Below are positions 7,024 to 15,519 of a stretch of 24,000 nt of DNA, in pieces. A program made the position numbers and the translations under genes. The notes under the pieces were generated by a model that saw nothing but the letters and a program-made list of their open reading frames with translations, had not been told where the DNA came from and ran no database searches. How positions within the stretch are numbered: the first letter of the stretch is position 1; each line of letters begins with the position of its first letter. The DNA is from an uncultured Elusimicrobia bacterium (lineage in GTDB: Bacteria; Elusimicrobiota; Elusimicrobia; 2-01-FULL-59-12): assembly GCA_964604825.1 (NCBI GenBank), contig CAZSAL010000015.1:18291-42290 (forward strand). The letters run 5' to 3'.

Positions 7024-7851
7024 TCAGCTTCTTGGGTCCAAAACATCTCTCAGCCCTTCGCCCAGCAGATTAAAAGACAGTACGGTAATAAGAATGGCGC
7101 AGGCGGGGAACAGCGAGAGCCACCAGGCAATGTGCAGATAATCCCGGCCAATGGAAAGGATGTTCCCCCACGACGGCATCGGCGGCTGCACGCCCAGTCC
7201 CAGGAAGGACAAGGCTGATTCCGTGAGGACCGCGCCGCCTACGCCAAGGGTGGCGCTGACAAGAACCGGCGCTATAACGTTAGGGAAAATATGAACCCAC
7301 AGGATCCGGAAATTGGAAATCCCCGCCAGACGCGCGGCCTGAATATAATCCCGTTCCCGGACGGACAGGCATTCCCCCCGCACCAGCCGCGCCAGTCCGG
7401 GCCATGCGGTAAGACCGATAATCGCCATGACGTTGTAGATGTTTGGTCCAAGAAACGCCAGTACCGCCAATATAAGGAAGAGCGTAGGAATTGAGAGCAT
7501 CACATCCACCAGGCGCATGATGATCGTGTCGATCCATTTTCCGAAGAACCCGGCGATCAGCCCCAGCGTTGTGCCGATAATCAATGAAATTCCCACGGCA
7601 ACGAATCCTACGGAAAGGGACACGCGCGTCCCAAAAATCAGACGGCTGAGCACATCGCGGCCAAGGTCGTCGGTCCCCAGCCAGTGGCGCGCGGAAGGCG
7701 GGGACAGGCGCTGGGTCAAGTTTTGGATGATGGGGTCATGCGGAGCGATTCTGGCGGCGAAGATAGCCAGGAACGCGAGGAAAATAATCACGGCCATGCC
7801 CGCGATGGCCAGCCGGTTCCTCCGGAAGCGTTCAAAGTAAAGGGTTATCAT
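7024..7851 (-). CDS. Peptide-type ABC transporter permease (OppC/DppC-like)
   Basis: 275-aa polytopic ORF. N-terminal FRRNRLAIAGMAVIIFL and an EAA-loop-like region YIQAARLAGISNFRILWVHIFPN are typical of the binding-protein-dependent permease family. Confidence 0.9.
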   Translation of the reverse strand: MITLYFERFRRNRLAIAGMAVIIFLAFLAIFAARIAPHDPIIQNLTQRLSPPSARHWLGTDDLGRDVLSRLIFGTRVSLSVGFVAVGISLIIGTTLGLIAGFFGKWIDTIIMRLVDVMLSIPTLFLILAVLAFLGPNIYNVMAIIGLTAWPGLARLVRGECLSVRERDYIQAARLAGISNFRILWVHIFPNVIAPVLVSATLGVGGAVLTESALSFLGLGVQPPMPSWGNILSIGRDYLHIAWWLSLFPACAILITVLSFNLLGEGLRDVLDPRS

Positions 7852-7894
7852 GAAAACAGCTCAATTAACATAGGGTCCAAACAAGACCTCACCA

Positions 7895-8027
7895 GGTGTA
7901 TCACTAGGTGTATCATAGTTGTATCAGTGTATCAGCAACTGATACACCTCGATAATTTATCGTCGATGTCGTAGGTGTATCAGTAGGTGTATCATAGGTG
8001 TATCAGTGTATCACCAGGTGATACACC
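7895..8027. repeat. Iteron-like array: two co-oriented 54-bp modules, each with four direct copies of (G)GTGTATCA plus one inverted copy, flanking a 13-bp palindrome
   Basis: Direct copies start at 7895, 7907, 7918, 7927 with an inverted TGATACACC at 7940-7948. Palindrome CGATAA-T-TTATCG lies at 7950-7962. Direct copies start at 7974, 7986, 7997, 8006 with an inverted copy at 8019-8027. The modules differ at 5 of 54 positions. Each ends in a 9-bp stem / 3-nt loop hairpin (7927-7947 and 8006-8026). Confidence 0.9.
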
Positions 8028-9004
8028 TACCTGCCGGCGTACCGGATTCTCGGGTCCGCATAAGCGTATAAAATATCAGCCAGCAGATTGCCCAGCACGG
8101 TTAAAAGCGCCGAAATCACCGTTATGGCCATGACCAGATTGTAGTCACGGGTCATAATTGCTTCATACCCGAGCCGGCCCATGCCCGGATAAGCAAAGAT
8201 TGTTTCGATGATCACCCCCCCGCCGATCAGGTCGGGGATCATCAGGCCGAACATCGTGAGCAGAGGGATCAGGGCGTTGCGCGCCGCATGAACGCCGTAA
8301 ACCCGCCAGTTGGAAAGGCCCTTGGCTTTCGCCGTACGGATAAAATCCTGGTGAACAACCTCCAGCATGCTGTTGCGCATGTATCTTGAAAGCCCGGCCA
8401 GATCGGTCAGTCCCAGGACCAGCGTCGGCAGAACAAGATGGCGGGCCATGTCCAGCATGCGGGCGGTCAAAGGCATAGGCATAAAAGAAAGCGACCTCAG
8501 CCCTGAGATAGGCAGCCATCCGAGCTCCAGTCCGAAAATAATCATCAGGAGCAGCGCCAGGGCATAGGTTGGTACGGAAAAACCCAGAAAAACAAAAACG
8601 GTAGAGGCTTTATCGAACCAGCTGTTGGCTTTAACCGCAGATATGGCTCCTATGGGTACGGCCACAAGGAACATGAAAAGGATGGAAAGGATGTTCAGGA
8701 GCAGCGTCGCCGGAAGGCGTTCGGCGATTTTCCGCAGCACCGGGCGGCCGTCGTTGAACGATTTGCCGAAATCAAACCGCGCCATGCGTCCCGCCCAGCG
8801 CGCATACTGCACCGGGATGGGCTGGTCAAACCCCATATCGTGGCTGATGCGCTGTTTTACTTCGGGCGTCACATGCGGGTTTAGATCCGCAATTTGGTCG
8901 ATCGGACCCCCCGGAGCCAGCTGTATGAGAAAAAAGCTGATGATGGAAATCCCGATCAAAGTGGGAATGACCTGCAGCAGGCGGCGGAGAAGGTAAGGGA
9001 TCAC
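8027..9004 (-). CDS. Peptide-type ABC transporter permease (OppB/DppB-like)
   Basis: The ORF track gives 8027-9052. I prefer the GTG at 9004-9002, which overlaps the upstream SBP stop as GTGA and yields the canonical N-terminus (M)IPYLLRRLLQVIPTLIG. The C-terminus is YADPRIRYAGR. The stop TAG (8029-8027) lies inside the terminal repeat unit. Confidence 0.88.
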   Translation of the reverse strand: MIPYLLRRLLQVIPTLIGISIISFFLIQLAPGGPIDQIADLNPHVTPEVKQRISHDMGFDQPIPVQYARWAGRMARFDFGKSFNDGRPVLRKIAERLPATLLLNILSILFMFLVAVPIGAISAVKANSWFDKASTVFVFLGFSVPTYALALLLMIIFGLELGWLPISGLRSLSFMPMPLTARMLDMARHLVLPTLVLGLTDLAGLSRYMRNSMLEVVHQDFIRTAKAKGLSNWRVYGVHAARNALIPLLTMFGLMIPDLIGGGVIIETIFAYPGMGRLGYEAIMTRDYNLVMAITVISALLTVLGNLLADILYAYADPRIRYAGR

Positions 9005-10707
9005 TGGATCATCTCCGTCTTGTAGCGCTGCAGTTTTTCCGGGACATACCACTGCCAGAAATTCCAGCCCAGGCCCGCAGGCGCAACTTCGGGCCCGATG
9101 AAGCGTTTATGAACGGCCTGCAGCTCGTCCGGCGAATACAGAAATACGTAAGGCAGATCCGCCGCAATCAATTCGTGCGCGCGCCAGTAAATTTCCTGGC
9201 GCTTTTTCTGGTCGAAAGTCTCCCTTCCTTCCACGAGCAGCCGGTCAACCTCCTTGTTCGAATAGCCGCAGAAATTGTACTGGCCTTCCTTCTGCTGGGA
9301 AGAATGCCACATGGCATAGATGTCGGGATCGCGTCCAAGCTGCCAGCCCATGACGAGGGCCTCGAAATCTTTCTTGTCAATGTAGTTCCGGATAAATGTC
9401 GACCATTCCATGATGCGGATGCGGACTTCGATTCCCACCCGGCCAAGCTGCTGCTGAATGACTTCCGAGCAGAGCTGCCGCACCTTGTTGCCCTGATTGG
9501 TCATGATCGTGAAAGAAAATACCCGGCCGTCCTTTTGCAGCCAGCCGCCTGGACCGGGACGCCATCCCGCTTCATCCAGCAGCCTCCTGGCGCGGGACGG
9601 ATCATAGGGAGGCGGAGTAACATGGGGGTTGTAAGCCCAGGACATTATGGCGAAGGGGCCGCTGATAGGCTGCCCCAGGCCGAGCTGCAGTCCCTGGACC
9701 AGAGCATTGCGGTCAATCGACAAGGCGATGGCCTCGCGAACGCGCCGGTCCTGGAACAAAGGATTTTTCAGGTTGAACCCTAGATAGACGTAGCGGAATG
9801 CCGGATAACGGAAGCGGTTGTGATGCGCGAAAATGGCGTCATAAGCCTTGTACTGATCCGGCGTCAGGGTCATTGCGTCGATGGACTGGTTTCTCAGCTC
9901 GAGGAATTCCACCGCCTGATCCGGAATAATGCGGTAGATATATTTCTGAATATAAGGCCGTCCCAGGAAGTAATCGGGATTTGCTTCGAGAAGGATGTAC
10001 TGATCGGTCTTCCATTCCTTGAACCGGAACGGCCCTGTGCCGATCGGCGCCCGGTTGGCGTGGTGCGTGTTGAAGTCTTCGGGGTTATGTGCGTTTTCAA
10101 AAACATGCCTGGGAATTATTCCCATTCCCCAGGAAGCAAGACCGGGAGCGAAGGGCTTTTTGTATACGACGCGTACCGTATAAGGATCAGGCGCTTTGAC
10201 GGACTCGACGTCGTCAAAATCACTGGCATAGGGAGTATGCACGCGCGGATCGCGCAGTTTTTCGTAAGTGAACAGGACGTCGTCTGCGGAAAAAGGCGCG
10301 CCGTCGTGCCAGCGGACGTTCCTGCGCAGGTGAAACACTATTACCAGGCCCTTCTTTTTTATTTCCCACGATTCCGCCAGATCGCCTGCGAGGTTCAGAT
10401 CTTTGTCGTATTTGACCAGCCCGTTGAACACCTGGTTGTTGATGTCATTGGAGGCGGAGTCGGACGCGAGAACAGGGTTCAGCATGCTTGCGTCGCCGAT
10501 GGAGCTGTCGGCGTAGGCGTCGCCGTACGCGGGGGCGGGAGTGTCAGCCGCCTGCAGCGGAGATGTCAAAATGCAGAAAGAAATCAAGCCGGTAATTGAC
10601 ACAATTCGTCGTCCCGGCAAGCCGTAGGCCGGGACCCAGGTGTTTTTCCTTAATGATAGGCCCCGGCCTGAAGCCTGCCGGGGCGACGATAAAGGATGTA
10701 AGTTCAT
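9001..10707 (-). CDS. ABC transporter substrate-binding protein, family 5 (oligopeptide/dipeptide/nickel type)
   Basis: 568-aa ORF with an N-terminal signal-like segment ITGLISFCILTSPLQA. Size and sequence pattern fit OppA/DppA-type binding proteins. Its start overlaps the upstream M16 stop as ATGA (10704-10707). Confidence 0.85.
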   Translation of the reverse strand: MNLHPLSSPRQASGRGLSLRKNTWVPAYGLPGRRIVSITGLISFCILTSPLQAADTPAPAYGDAYADSSIGDASMLNPVLASDSASNDINNQVFNGLVKYDKDLNLAGDLAESWEIKKKGLVIVFHLRRNVRWHDGAPFSADDVLFTYEKLRDPRVHTPYASDFDDVESVKAPDPYTVRVVYKKPFAPGLASWGMGIIPRHVFENAHNPEDFNTHHANRAPIGTGPFRFKEWKTDQYILLEANPDYFLGRPYIQKYIYRIIPDQAVEFLELRNQSIDAMTLTPDQYKAYDAIFAHHNRFRYPAFRYVYLGFNLKNPLFQDRRVREAIALSIDRNALVQGLQLGLGQPISGPFAIMSWAYNPHVTPPPYDPSRARRLLDEAGWRPGPGGWLQKDGRVFSFTIMTNQGNKVRQLCSEVIQQQLGRVGIEVRIRIMEWSTFIRNYIDKKDFEALVMGWQLGRDPDIYAMWHSSQQKEGQYNFCGYSNKEVDRLLVEGRETFDQKKRQEIYWRAHELIAADLPYVFLYSPDELQAVHKRFIGPEVAPAGLGWNFWQWYVPEKLQRYKTEMIQ

Positions 10708-11940: not shown

Positions 11941-13275
11941 TTAATTTTCCACTACCGCGCTGGACAGGGCGTCTGGATGAAAGTACCTGTTTATCACGGG
12001 CTTCAGCTGAGAACCCGTCAGGCCGGCAATCTTATCAACGTAATTTTCCAGCCGGTCCAGCCTGTCTTCGACGGCAAAAAGGCCGATGATCGAAGCCTGA
12101 TTATGATAGCTTTCAAAACTTTGGAGCCATGAGTTTAGAATAATATTTTTTGCCCGTTCTATTTCATGTCTCGCGGGAGGCCGGCGAAGCAGCATGGAAA
12201 AATGCCCTCCAATTTCCCGGCCCAACAGGGCCCTTTTTTGAGGATCGCATTCGGCGAAGATCGCAAAAATTCCCGGTCCCTCATGCGTGATATTCCCGGC
12301 GTGAATGGACCATGCGATTTTCTTTTTCTCCCGCAGGGAGGAGACAAGGCGTGAACTGCGGCCTTCCCCAAGGATCGTAGCCAGCAGATCAAGCGCCTCG
12401 TGATCGGCGCTGGACGACGGCGGCGTCGGCAGGGCCAGGGCCAGATAGGACTGCTTGACGGGTTTCTTGATTTTTAAATCCCGCATTGCGGGCCTGCTCG
12501 CGGCAAGTTGAGGTCTTTGAACTTCCCGGCCTGCGGGCATTCCGCGGAATGCGGTTGTAATCCAGGCCAGCATTTTCCGGGGGTTCAAATCTCCGGCGGC
12601 GACAAGGATGCAGCGGGCTGCGTTGTATCGATCGTGGTAATATCCGGCCAGTTCCTCACGGGACAGGTTCTTCACTGTTTCCGGCGTCCCGATTACGGGG
12701 CGGCTGAGCCGCCGTTCGGAATAAATCGCCTGACTCAGCAGATCCCATAACAGCGCGTCAGGGTCGTCATTCCTGCGCTTCATTTCTTCCAGAATAACAA
12801 AGCGCTCGCGCTGCCATTCTTCCGGAGGAAAAGTTGCACGGTGCATCATCTCGCCCAGCAGGGAAATCGCTTCCCGGGAGCCTGCGCTGGGCAGATCGAC
12901 GAAGTAATGGGTATATTCCCGCGAAGTCTCGGCATTAAGTGAGCCGCCAAGGGATTCCATCCAGCGGGATATGCCTGAAGCCGCATGCCGGTCGGTTCCT
13001 TTAAAGACCATATGCTCCAGGGCATGAGATATCCCCGCCTGTGATTCTTCTTCGTCTATGGATCCGGCGCGCAGCCAGGTTTGAATGGATACCAGCGGCC
13101 AGGAGTGATCTTCTTTTAAATAAACGCGCAATCCGTTGGAAAGGCGGTAGGTGTGAAGCTGATCCAGCGGTGAGAAAGACTTTGACGTCGGAAAACTCCG
13201 CGCGATCCTAGATTGAGGTGGTGACCAGCGTTTCGGTCGAGGCGACGCCCGGTACGGCGCGTATCTTCCCGACAA
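11941..13275 (-). CDS. M16-family zinc metallopeptidase (pitrilysin/insulinase type), catalytic subunit
   Basis: Inverted zincin motif HxxEH in GISHALEHMVFKGT; N-terminal strand YRLSNGLRVYLKE. The only in-frame canonical start is TTG at 13275. It has no SD and overlaps the upstream gene by 68 nt, so the 5' end is uncertain. Confidence 0.8.
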   Translation of the reverse strand: MSGRYAPYRASPRPKRWSPPQSRIARSFPTSKSFSPLDQLHTYRLSNGLRVYLKEDHSWPLVSIQTWLRAGSIDEEESQAGISHALEHMVFKGTDRHAASGISRWMESLGGSLNAETSREYTHYFVDLPSAGSREAISLLGEMMHRATFPPEEWQRERFVILEEMKRRNDDPDALLWDLLSQAIYSERRLSRPVIGTPETVKNLSREELAGYYHDRYNAARCILVAAGDLNPRKMLAWITTAFRGMPAGREVQRPQLAASRPAMRDLKIKKPVKQSYLALALPTPPSSSADHEALDLLATILGEGRSSRLVSSLREKKKIAWSIHAGNITHEGPGIFAIFAECDPQKRALLGREIGGHFSMLLRRPPARHEIERAKNIILNSWLQSFESYHNQASIIGLFAVEDRLDRLENYVDKIAGLTGSQLKPVINRYFHPDALSSAVVEN

Positions 13276-13441
13276 CGACGTTGGTCATTGTGTGCAGATC
13301 TGCGGCTTCGATGTCGGCGACGATGTCCCAGCGTCCAAAAACGGCCGATAAATGCGAGACGCCTTTGATGTCTTTCAGCTTCGCCATGGTGAGTTTTTCG
13401 CGTCCGGCTGCCAAGCGGATTAAAACCAAACCTGTGATCAT
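13208..13441 (-). CDS. Stand-alone Lrp/AsnC-type ligand-binding (RAM) domain protein, no DNA-binding domain
   Basis: 77-aa ORF (MITGLVLIRL...VSHLSAVFGRWDIVADIEAADLHTMTNVVVGKIRAVPGVASTETLV) matches the beta-alpha-beta-beta-alpha-beta RAM pattern. A strong SD, GGGAGGG, lies upstream of the ATG. Confidence 0.7.
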   Translation of the reverse strand: MITGLVLIRLAAGREKLTMAKLKDIKGVSHLSAVFGRWDIVADIEAADLHTMTNVVVGKIRAVPGVASTETLVTTSI

Positions 13442-14489: not shown

Positions 14490-15413
14490 TCATTGCAGCC
14501 GGTATTCGAGGGATATGCCGGTTTCGCTTTCATGCAGCCAGGGAATAAGGTTGGCCCACCGGCTTGAAATAAGCTGCATCATTGAAAGCAGGGAATGGGT
14601 TTCGTCAGTGTAAATTTGCGGATTCTCCGGAAGATCGGCCATATCGATGGCGAGTTTTATGGCGTCACGGCTGTTGCCAAGCTGGTCGACAAGACCCGCG
14701 GCAAGCGCCTGGCGTCCGGTAAAAATGCGGCCGTCCGCCAGAGCCTTAACCTTTTCGATGGGCATGCGGCGGCCCTGCGACACGGCGTCTGTGAACTGGT
14801 TATAGGCGTCATTAATGGAAGCCTGGAGCATCTGCCGTTCTTCAATGGTTAACGGCCGGGCGGGAGAGCCGATATCCTTGTGTGCGCCGCTTTTAATGAC
14901 CTGTAATTTGACTCCCAGTTTTTCAAAGAGCCCTTCCAGATTACCGAATTCCAGAATGACGCCGATGCTGCCTGTAATCGACCCGGGATCGGCAACAATT
15001 CGATCCGCGGCAGAGGCGAGATAATAACCTCCGGAAGCCGCAACATCGCCCATGGAAGCGATCACCTTTTTCCCCTTGGTTTTACAGCGAATAATTTCCG
15101 TGTAGATTTCCTGAACGGCGCCGACAGATCCGCCGGGAGAATTGATCCGCAGGAGCACGGCTTTAATATCATCGTCTTCGGAAATTTTGTGCAGGCGGCG
15201 AACGATCTCGTCGGTATCCGGTCCTCCCCATCCGGTCGATGTTTCGCGCGTATGAATAAGTCCGTAAATGTGCACAATGGCAAGAGCGCCTTTTTTACCT
15301 CTTCCCAAATGAAAAAGAGATTTTGGAAGGAGCGAAAACAGCGCAATAAGAGTCGCCGAGAGGTAGAAGATCCAGAGCAGCTTGAGAAATAATTCTTGTT
15401 TAGAACTTTGCAT
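14490..15413 (-). CDS. sppA: Signal peptide peptidase SppA, 36K type (S49 family)
   Basis: S49 motifs RINSPGGSVGA and GDVAASGGYYLASAAD (Ser nucleophile), plus GSIGV. There is one N-terminal TM (LWIFYLSATLIALFSLL). The track ORF extends to 15482 but that extension reads through a tRNA gene. I use the ATG at 15413 (MQSSKQELF...). Confidence 0.85.
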   Translation of the reverse strand: MQSSKQELFLKLLWIFYLSATLIALFSLLPKSLFHLGRGKKGALAIVHIYGLIHTRETSTGWGGPDTDEIVRRLHKISEDDDIKAVLLRINSPGGSVGAVQEIYTEIIRCKTKGKKVIASMGDVAASGGYYLASAADRIVADPGSITGSIGVILEFGNLEGLFEKLGVKLQVIKSGAHKDIGSPARPLTIEERQMLQASINDAYNQFTDAVSQGRRMPIEKVKALADGRIFTGRQALAAGLVDQLGNSRDAIKLAIDMADLPENPQIYTDETHSLLSMMQLISSRWANLIPWLHESETGISLEYRLQ

Positions 15414-15424
15414 AATCAGCACCC

Positions 15425-15496
15425 TGCCCTTGGCCAGAATCGAACTGGCATCCTCGGCTTCGGAGGCCGGTACTCTATCCATTGAGCTACAAGGGC
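15425..15496 (-). tRNA. tRNA-Arg (anticodon CCG), 72 nt, no encoded 3' CCA
   Basis: Folded by hand: acceptor GCCCTTG/CAAGGGC; D arm GCTC-AATGGATA-GAGT; anticodon arm CCGGC-CTCCGAA-GCCGA (27-43 is a C-A mismatch) with anticodon CCG at plus coordinates 15463-15461; T arm GCCAG-TTCGATT-CTGGC; discriminator A. It is followed by GGGTGC, so CCA is not encoded. Confidence 0.9.
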
Positions 15497-15519
15497 AGGC
15501 TGCCGACGTTTCGGCCGCG

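Follow-up and report, generated by a model that had tools for sequence, protein, structure and literature searches.

A repeat element, probably of miniature inverted-repeat transposable element type, inserted at a permease gene junction in an Elusimicrobia-like bacterium

A repeat array between permB and permC

We examined a 24,000-nt stretch of DNA from an uncultured Elusimicrobia bacterium (the window, to which coordinates refer unless another contig is named), in which the two permease genes of a peptide/nickel-type ATP-binding cassette (ABC) importer are separated by a dense array of short repeats. The importer genes lie in a minus-strand operon that encodes two M16 peptidases, an SBP_bac_5 binding protein, the permeases permB and permC, two ATPases and an AMP-binding enzyme. 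permB (8027..9004, minus strand) encodes an OppB/DppB-type permease of 325 aa, and permC (7024..7851, minus strand) an OppC/DppC-type permease of 275 aa. The start of permB is not at 9052 but is a GTG at 9004, which overlaps the stop codon of the binding-protein gene. The spacer between the two permease genes measures 175 nt (7852-8026) and has a G+C content of 0.411, compared to 0.542 for the window as a whole.

That this low-G+C spacer holds ten copies of one motif had been noticed in a first-pass annotation, made by a model from the sequence alone, and the count was borne out. The 8-mer GTGTATCA has nine exact matches, all inside 7896-8026 (0.18 expected; at most 2 in 100 shuffles), and is absent from the remainder of the 24 kb window, while the tenth unit of the array, TTGTATCA at 7919, departs from it by a single change. 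The units are arranged in two co-oriented modules on the plus strand, module 1 at 7894..7949 and module 2 at 7973..8028, which recur with a period of 79 nt. These had been described as differing at five positions, and this is what we measured over their 56 nt each (5/56 differences, 91% identity). Each module combines four direct copies with a single inverted one; from start to start the direct copies stand 12, 11 and 8 nt apart, rather than the 12, 11 and 9 nt first given. In module 1 the direct units begin at 7896, 7908, 7919 and 7927 and the inverted unit occupies 7940-7947; in module 2 they begin at 7975, 7987, 7998 and 8006, with the inverted unit at 8019-8026.

In both modules the inverted copy can pair with the last of the direct copies into a 9-bp hairpin, as had been proposed. 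The module 1 hairpin (7927..7947; stem 7927-7935/7939-7947) has a 3-nt loop, and that of module 2 (8006..8026; stem 8006-8015/8017-8026) has a stem of 9-10 bp. The modules are joined by a linker (7950..7972, CGATAATTTATCGTCGATGTCGT) that begins with the 13-bp AT-rich palindrome CGATAATTTATCG at 7950-7962. At the other end of the array, the TAG stop codon of permB (8029..8027) shares the terminal bases of the last repeat unit, an overlap that the first-pass annotation had also recognized.

Junctions in relatives and copies at other loci

The permB–permC junction was compared with that of relatives whose permC is 79-83% identical, six related lineages in all. In five of these (L128-130, L131/132, L133, L126/127 and a Joint Genome Institute (JGI) contig) the two genes overlap by 4 nt (ATGA) or by 1 nt, so that the permease genes abut directly, which had been suggested beforehand as the sign of an insertion. 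The empty junction in relatives reads ..CGNTAYCG|ATGAT.., with the permB stop and the permC start overlapping. The window carries 186 additional nt (approximately 7852..8037) between ..CGGTAC and ATGATAACC.., and the C-terminus of PermB is changed from ..RIRY[RK] to ..RIRYAGR. Because the permease genes overlap in 5/6 related lineages, we conclude that the spacer array is an insertion in one lineage of this Elusimicrobia-like bacterium.

One relative (Elusimicrobia RIFCSPLOWO2_01_FULL_59_12; L123 5907-6000, also L124 and L125) has an unrelated insert of 94 nt at the identical permB/permC junction, with its own imperfect hairpin (GAGGATGG..CCATCCTC). Since a relative holds an unrelated insert at the same place, insertions seem to be tolerated at this junction or drawn to it. 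In relatives, other junctions of the same operon are also interrupted: on the JGI 3300050046 contig a 353-aa gene on the opposite strand splits the two ATPase genes, and in L133 (2281-3432) a BrnT/CopG toxin-antitoxin pair and a DUF6941 gene lie behind the first ATPase gene.

The element is not confined to this operon. A metagenome scan with a pattern of two adjacent perfect units returned 26 loci, mostly unrelated tandem repeats or iteron arrays, and revealed the same two-module element (~132 nt) at L140 6071-6201 and at L156 3471-3604, on contigs that both come from one sample. The order of parts in L140, L156 and the window is identical, namely four direct units, an inverted unit and the linker, after which the same series of units recurs. 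The window copy is 94% identical to that of L140 over 122 nt, and an nhmmer profile of the three copies recovers them with E-values of 7e-43 (window), 3e-42 (L140) and 1e-40 (L156) and finds no additional copy in any fetched DNA. Common to all three is the core element, which in the window comprises 135 nt (7894..8028, plus strand), that is, module 1, the 23-nt linker and module 2. The core is non-coding, with all six frames interrupted by stop codons across the three copies; as every frame is broken in this way, finding further copies through spurious open reading frames (ORFs) in a protein database was rejected as an approach.

All three copies are intergenic, and the flanking genes are unrelated across the three sites. 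The L140 copy is flanked by co-directional genes for a HATPase_c protein and a 230-aa protein, and the L156 copy by divergent genes for a CsgG/FlgO-like lipoprotein and a Zn-dependent alcohol dehydrogenase. The element lies antisense to the genes in the window, in sense orientation in L140 and between divergent genes in L156. The idea that the array is a conserved promoter region of homologous downstream genes in L140 and L156 was ruled out, as these genes are not homologous.

One genome very probably holds all three loci, because their tetranucleotide compositions correlate at 0.96-0.97, compared to 0.79-0.87 with clade relatives, and because a single Logan run (SRR6946416) contains proteins identical to those of each locus. 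Furthermore, L140 and L156 co-occur in two JGI samples. Each of the four Logan contigs that extend into a copy stops within the element. The assembler behind Logan uses a k-mer size of 31, and the copies share exact runs of 41-43 nt; these exceed the k-mer size and account for the contig breaks. We considered such breaks as proof of many copies and rejected the argument, since the exact runs of the three known copies suffice to produce them.

Other searches were uninformative. The matches listed for a looser pattern on genome contigs (TGTATCA three times) were chance tandem repeats in unrelated phyla, none of which carries the element, and among these listed matches those with GG before the motif were as numerous as chance predicts. 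A blastn search against plasmids and phages gave nothing except one weak 44-nt match. A literature search for the 9-mer returned only primer sequences, and a single search gave no report of such a repeat family in this Elusimicrobiota-like phylum. Two other repeats were encountered: a different dispersed repeat in a Chloroflexia metagenome-assembled genome (MAG), MFD00991.bin.3.206 (L083 438-472, L093 6462-6530, L103 51-141), which combines tandem GGTGTATCA 9-mers with a GAGTCGAGGCGACTC hairpin, and a 13-nt unit, C[GC]CCGGTGTATCA, present in 25 tandem copies in a Dehalococcoidia MAG (L111 5948-6267).

Anatomy and interpretation of the element

Similarity across the copies starts at AGGTGTATCA and stops at TGATACAC(CT). 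In the window the left end (7894..7903, plus strand, AGGTGTATCA) is fully complementary to the right end (8019..8028, minus strand, TGATACACCT), the final bases of which belong to the new permB stop codon. The element therefore has perfect 10-bp terminal inverted repeats, with the caveat that the identical motif also makes up the internal repeat: the element is built almost wholly of this one 10-bp motif, and the whole element and each module alike are bounded by a perfect 10-bp inverted repeat. This is an uncommon build, with a body that reiterates the terminal motif and a mobile unit that takes the form of a tandem dimer. The presence of module 1, linker and module 2 in all three copies indicates that the dimeric structure predates dispersal.

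Conservation is uneven along the element. Module 2 is the best-conserved part of the family. The linker retains ..AAT.TTA.CGTCGATG..GT across copies, with CGTCGATG kept in all three, but the palindrome that had been singled out in the window is perfect in that copy only. Hairpin loops vary in all six modules (GCAAC, GTAAC, AGGT, CCAGG, GGGA, GTGA), whereas eight of the nine stem pairs are invariant, so that they offer no usable covariation. The ninth pair does differ between the two window modules, which had been read as a compensatory swap; across the six modules this one pair is paired in four and unpaired in two, a pattern that does not go beyond chance. Past the right end, L140 and L156 share ~29 extra nt (19/29 identical) that the window copy lacks. 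This extension holds TGGTATAAT and TGGCATAAT, respectively, 6 nt ahead of the ATG of the neighboring gene, possibly an outward extended -10 promoter, although a consensus promoter scan flagged neither site.

The left flank of the window copy has features of its own. Between the core element and the permC start lie 42 nt (7852..7893) that are matched elsewhere only by the same site in L121, a contig from the strain of SRR13221498. At L121 position 9, GGTGTATCA replaces the GTTGTATCA found in the window at 7919; this is the 1 base that differs in the array, against 0/7851 in the downstream flank, and the array thus changes faster than its flanking sequence in this comparison. The permC start itself (ATGATAACCCT, minus strand, window 7841-7851) matches the repeat unit ATGATACACCT at 9/11 positions, a likeness that may be due to chance or may hint at a target preference.

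Taken together, these results lead us to read the array as a copy of a new, short, non-coding and dispersed repeat family, resembling MITEs (transposable elements of the miniature inverted-repeat class), that was inserted at the permease junction. We give this reading a probability of roughly 0.7. It makes the array an ordinary kind of element and not a locus-specific control system. In size, too, the 135-nt core lies under the 500 bp that delimits MITEs. The first-pass annotation had proposed that dispersed copies would point to an ordinary repeat family, and such copies are indeed present, if in a documented number of only three. On this reading the element inserted into the 4-nt ATGA overlap that couples the two permease genes, creating a new permB stop codon and three new C-terminal residues and moving permC 175 nt away from permB. 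It would have moved in trans through a protein with affinity for the reiterated 10-bp motif; a transposase encoded elsewhere in the genome is the candidate, and the hairpin that the inverted copy forms with the last of the direct copies may act as a recognition structure. The hairpins after permB, the lost translational coupling and a 22-codon ORF (MIHLVIHLVRSCLDPMLIELFS*, 7848..7916, minus strand) would then be by-products of the insertion. The TGA of this ORF overlaps the permC ATG as ATGA, and judged from this arrangement the ORF may partly restore translational coupling between permB and permC.

Several observations weigh against a MITE-like family. In ~60 kb of this genome we saw neither a transposase nor a larger element with the same ends, and, with a length of 8-10 bp and a spacing of 8-12 bp, the sites are short and closely packed compared to the typical binding sites of DDE transposases. 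Only three copies are documented, by a scan requiring two adjacent perfect units, and what joins the three contigs into one genome is their composition and co-occurrence rather than a closed assembly. The window insert is more than the bare core, as it includes 42 + ~10 nt that are absent from the other copies. In addition, neither the window site (..CGGTAC|GCCGG.. / ..GTTTTC|ATGATA..) nor L140 or L156 showed a target-site duplication; such duplications fade in older MITEs (PMC10969869).

The first-pass annotation had itself offered an inserted element, either MITE-like or of the repetitive extragenic palindrome (REP) or bacterial interspersed mosaic element (BIME) type, as one of three readings among which it made no choice; the MITE-like insertion has gained from the overlapping genes in 5/6 relatives and from the two other loci, but the REP version we consider unlikely. 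It would have the hairpins recognized as single-stranded DNA by a REP-associated tyrosine transposase (RAYT), an IS200/IS605-like HUH enzyme, with GTAG as the head. In line with this, an 8-bp hairpin is retained in 6/6 modules though the loops vary freely, the copies are extragenic, the missing target-site duplication is what HUH enzymes predict, and GTAG stands ahead of two window units. The stem GTGTATCA, however, has 37.5% G+C and is not GC-rich, and what abuts the hairpin is another repeat unit rather than a GTAG head. The GTAG or TAG that had been reported before most units precedes some of them but is unconserved between copies, in which CCAGG, ACAGG, GTCAG and TTAGG are also present. 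Furthermore, the modules are co-oriented in all three copies instead of alternating, three copies documented by the strict pattern compare with more than 100 in typical families, and no Y1/RAYT gene was seen in the 60 kb. The hairpins might alternatively form an intra-operon RNA element, selected to set the ratio or stability of the permB and permC halves of the transcript, a role that REP sequences play in malEFG and hisJQMP. A folding energy of -59.3 kcal/mol (z = -3.85) was computed for the minus-strand RNA of 7840-8040, in which a hairpin begins directly at the stop codon of permB. One inverted copy is open to pairing with several direct copies (the best fold has a low ensemble frequency, 3-25%), and the 22-codon ORF finishes in ATGA at the permC start. 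The insert is nevertheless missing from the five lineages that retain direct coupling, the other copies do not stand between cistrons in that way and have the opposite orientation, and the 8/9 invariant stem pairs lend no covariation support. No promoter-like or terminator-like site was found within the spacer itself, and no Rfam covariance model reached its gathering score there, a permissive search giving only miRNA-type noise (E > 0.8). As orientation differs between copies, a strand-specific RNA role cannot define the family, and the earlier proposal that such a structure is the raison d'être of the array was not upheld by copies that lie antisense, sense and between divergent genes. We hold a selected RNA element to be very unlikely, and a side effect of the element on the permB–permC transcript to be possible.

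The same repeats can be viewed as binding sites. The element could be a portable protein-binding and promoter cassette, in which the 10-mer forms an operator or iteron array, the right end carries an outward extended -10 promoter, and neighboring genes are brought under the control of the binder. In its fuller form, this would be a mobile set of sites for a single DNA-binding protein, bordered by a terminator-like hairpin at one end and by the outward promoter at the other; we judge the cassette, in either form, decidedly unlikely. Direct units that stand 11-12 bp apart, roughly one turn of the helix, and form two clusters flanking an AT-rich and partly palindromic linker do resemble iteron or operator arrays, the shared extension of L140 and L156 contains the promoter-like sites mentioned above, and promoters are known from MITEs, Correia and BrickBuilt among them (PMC10969869). 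The window copy lacks that extension, though, and the outward direction there is antisense to permB; the three flanking gene sets have no common function and no candidate binding protein is encoded nearby. Similar 9-mer arrays do occur in viral contigs (units of the GGTGTATCA type at 12-nt spacing; L143/L163 11642-11882 and L155 2733-3109), one of them inside the lambda-O-like replication initiator gene of L143, where it likely represents origin iterons, and another just upstream of a tyrosine integrase gene. These arrays were selected by the search pattern and have no other similarity to the window element, so that they prove nothing about it. If the cassette were real, it would rewire genes wherever it lands, in the window splitting the ABC-importer operon into two separately controlled halves, and its mover would be an enzyme type so far unlinked to dense sites spaced 8-12 bp apart. 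We regard as extremely improbable that the array is a minisatellite generated by local slippage or a centromere of the plasmid parC type. Short tandem units and the strain-level change seen in L121 would suit a minisatellite, but the near-identical module-linker-module copies at two unrelated loci exclude a purely local origin. The likeness to R1 parC raised in the first-pass annotation, two clusters of ~11-bp repeats around a core, is one of form: the copies are dispersed, and a parC-like centromere is excluded because the operon is surrounded by chromosomal housekeeping genes (AlaRS, tRNA-Arg, GH57 branching enzyme, PurH, LigA) without partition genes. Comparison by eye with DnaA, Fur and LexA boxes, dif, matS, uptake sequences and the repeats of type III toxin-antitoxin systems gave weak matches or a misfit to the distribution of copies.

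Genomic setting, related families and meaning

The setting of the MITE-like element in the window is chromosomal. The best named homologues of permC are from Elusimicrobia MAGs (74-78% identity), gene order is kept across the operon and its flanks, and the neighbors of the array (ABC importer, M16 peptidase, AMP-binding, AlaRS, LigA and PurH genes) keep their synteny in chromosomal contigs of relatives. A 77-aa ORF (13208-13441, minus strand) that lies upstream of the M16 peptidase genes occupies the position of a 77-78-aa AsnC_trans_reg gene in relatives, and the gene order there agrees with that of the clade. Farther along, an S49 peptidase ORF (14490-15482) overlaps tRNA-Arg(CCG) (15424-15497), and the true S49 start must therefore lie further downstream.

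Among known elements, Chunjie of Geobacter uraniireducens Rf4 (Chen et al. 2008) is a MITE of 178-235 bp that is flanked by direct repeats (target duplications) and occurs in at least 38 copies, as summarized in PMC10969869. According to that summary, it is like the present family in being small and non-coding with terminal inverted repeats, and one of its copies lies inside a phosphate-uptake ABC-transporter operon, the others being intergenic (PMC10969869). Compared to what is described there, the window family differs in that no duplication was seen, three copies are documented and the body is the reiterated terminal motif. BrickBuilt and MITEPgRS of Porphyromonas gingivalis are MITE-like, contain an internal tandem repeat, are always intergenic, number ~10-20 copies and carry promoter-like segments (PMC4596501). 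They share with our family the combination of a MITE-like element and internal repeats; unlike them, it has a unit of 8-12 nt that is the terminal inverted repeat sequence itself, and no parent insertion sequence is known for it. The Correia/NEMIS elements of Neisseria are comparable as 100-200-bp elements with terminal inverted repeats, RNA hairpins and co-transcription with neighbors, some Correia subtypes having outward promoters (PMC10969869); the inverted repeats of Correia measure 26 bp, it comes with a TA duplication and in more than 100 copies, and its terminal motif is not iterated internally (PMC10969869).

REP sequences, defined by a GT[AG]G head that abuts a GC-rich palindrome, occur in more than 100 copies and in alternating orientation within clusters (PMC2817692). 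The family described here resembles the REP/BIME elements of RAYT systems as a short extragenic hairpin repeat without target duplication that is found between genes of an ABC-transporter operon, but it has no such head at a GC-rich palindrome, no alternating orientation and three documented copies. With R1 parC and the origin iterons of plasmids and phages it shares two clusters of direct repeats, about one helical turn apart, around a central core; in contrast to these it is chromosomal and dispersed, has no partition or replication gene nearby, and ends each cluster in an inverted copy.

For the annotation of this organism, these findings mean that the permease genes are intact and that the spacer is an inserted repeat, not a regulatory system of the transporter. 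They also mean that the repeat breaks short-read assemblies of the organism at every copy. The element adds a repeat family to the Elusimicrobiota-like phylum, and its unusual build, with the terminal repeat reiterated as the body of a tandem dimer, could help to identify the enzyme that moves it. Finally, the locus provides a natural case in which a translationally coupled permease pair with an ATGA overlap has been separated by 175 nt with both genes intact.

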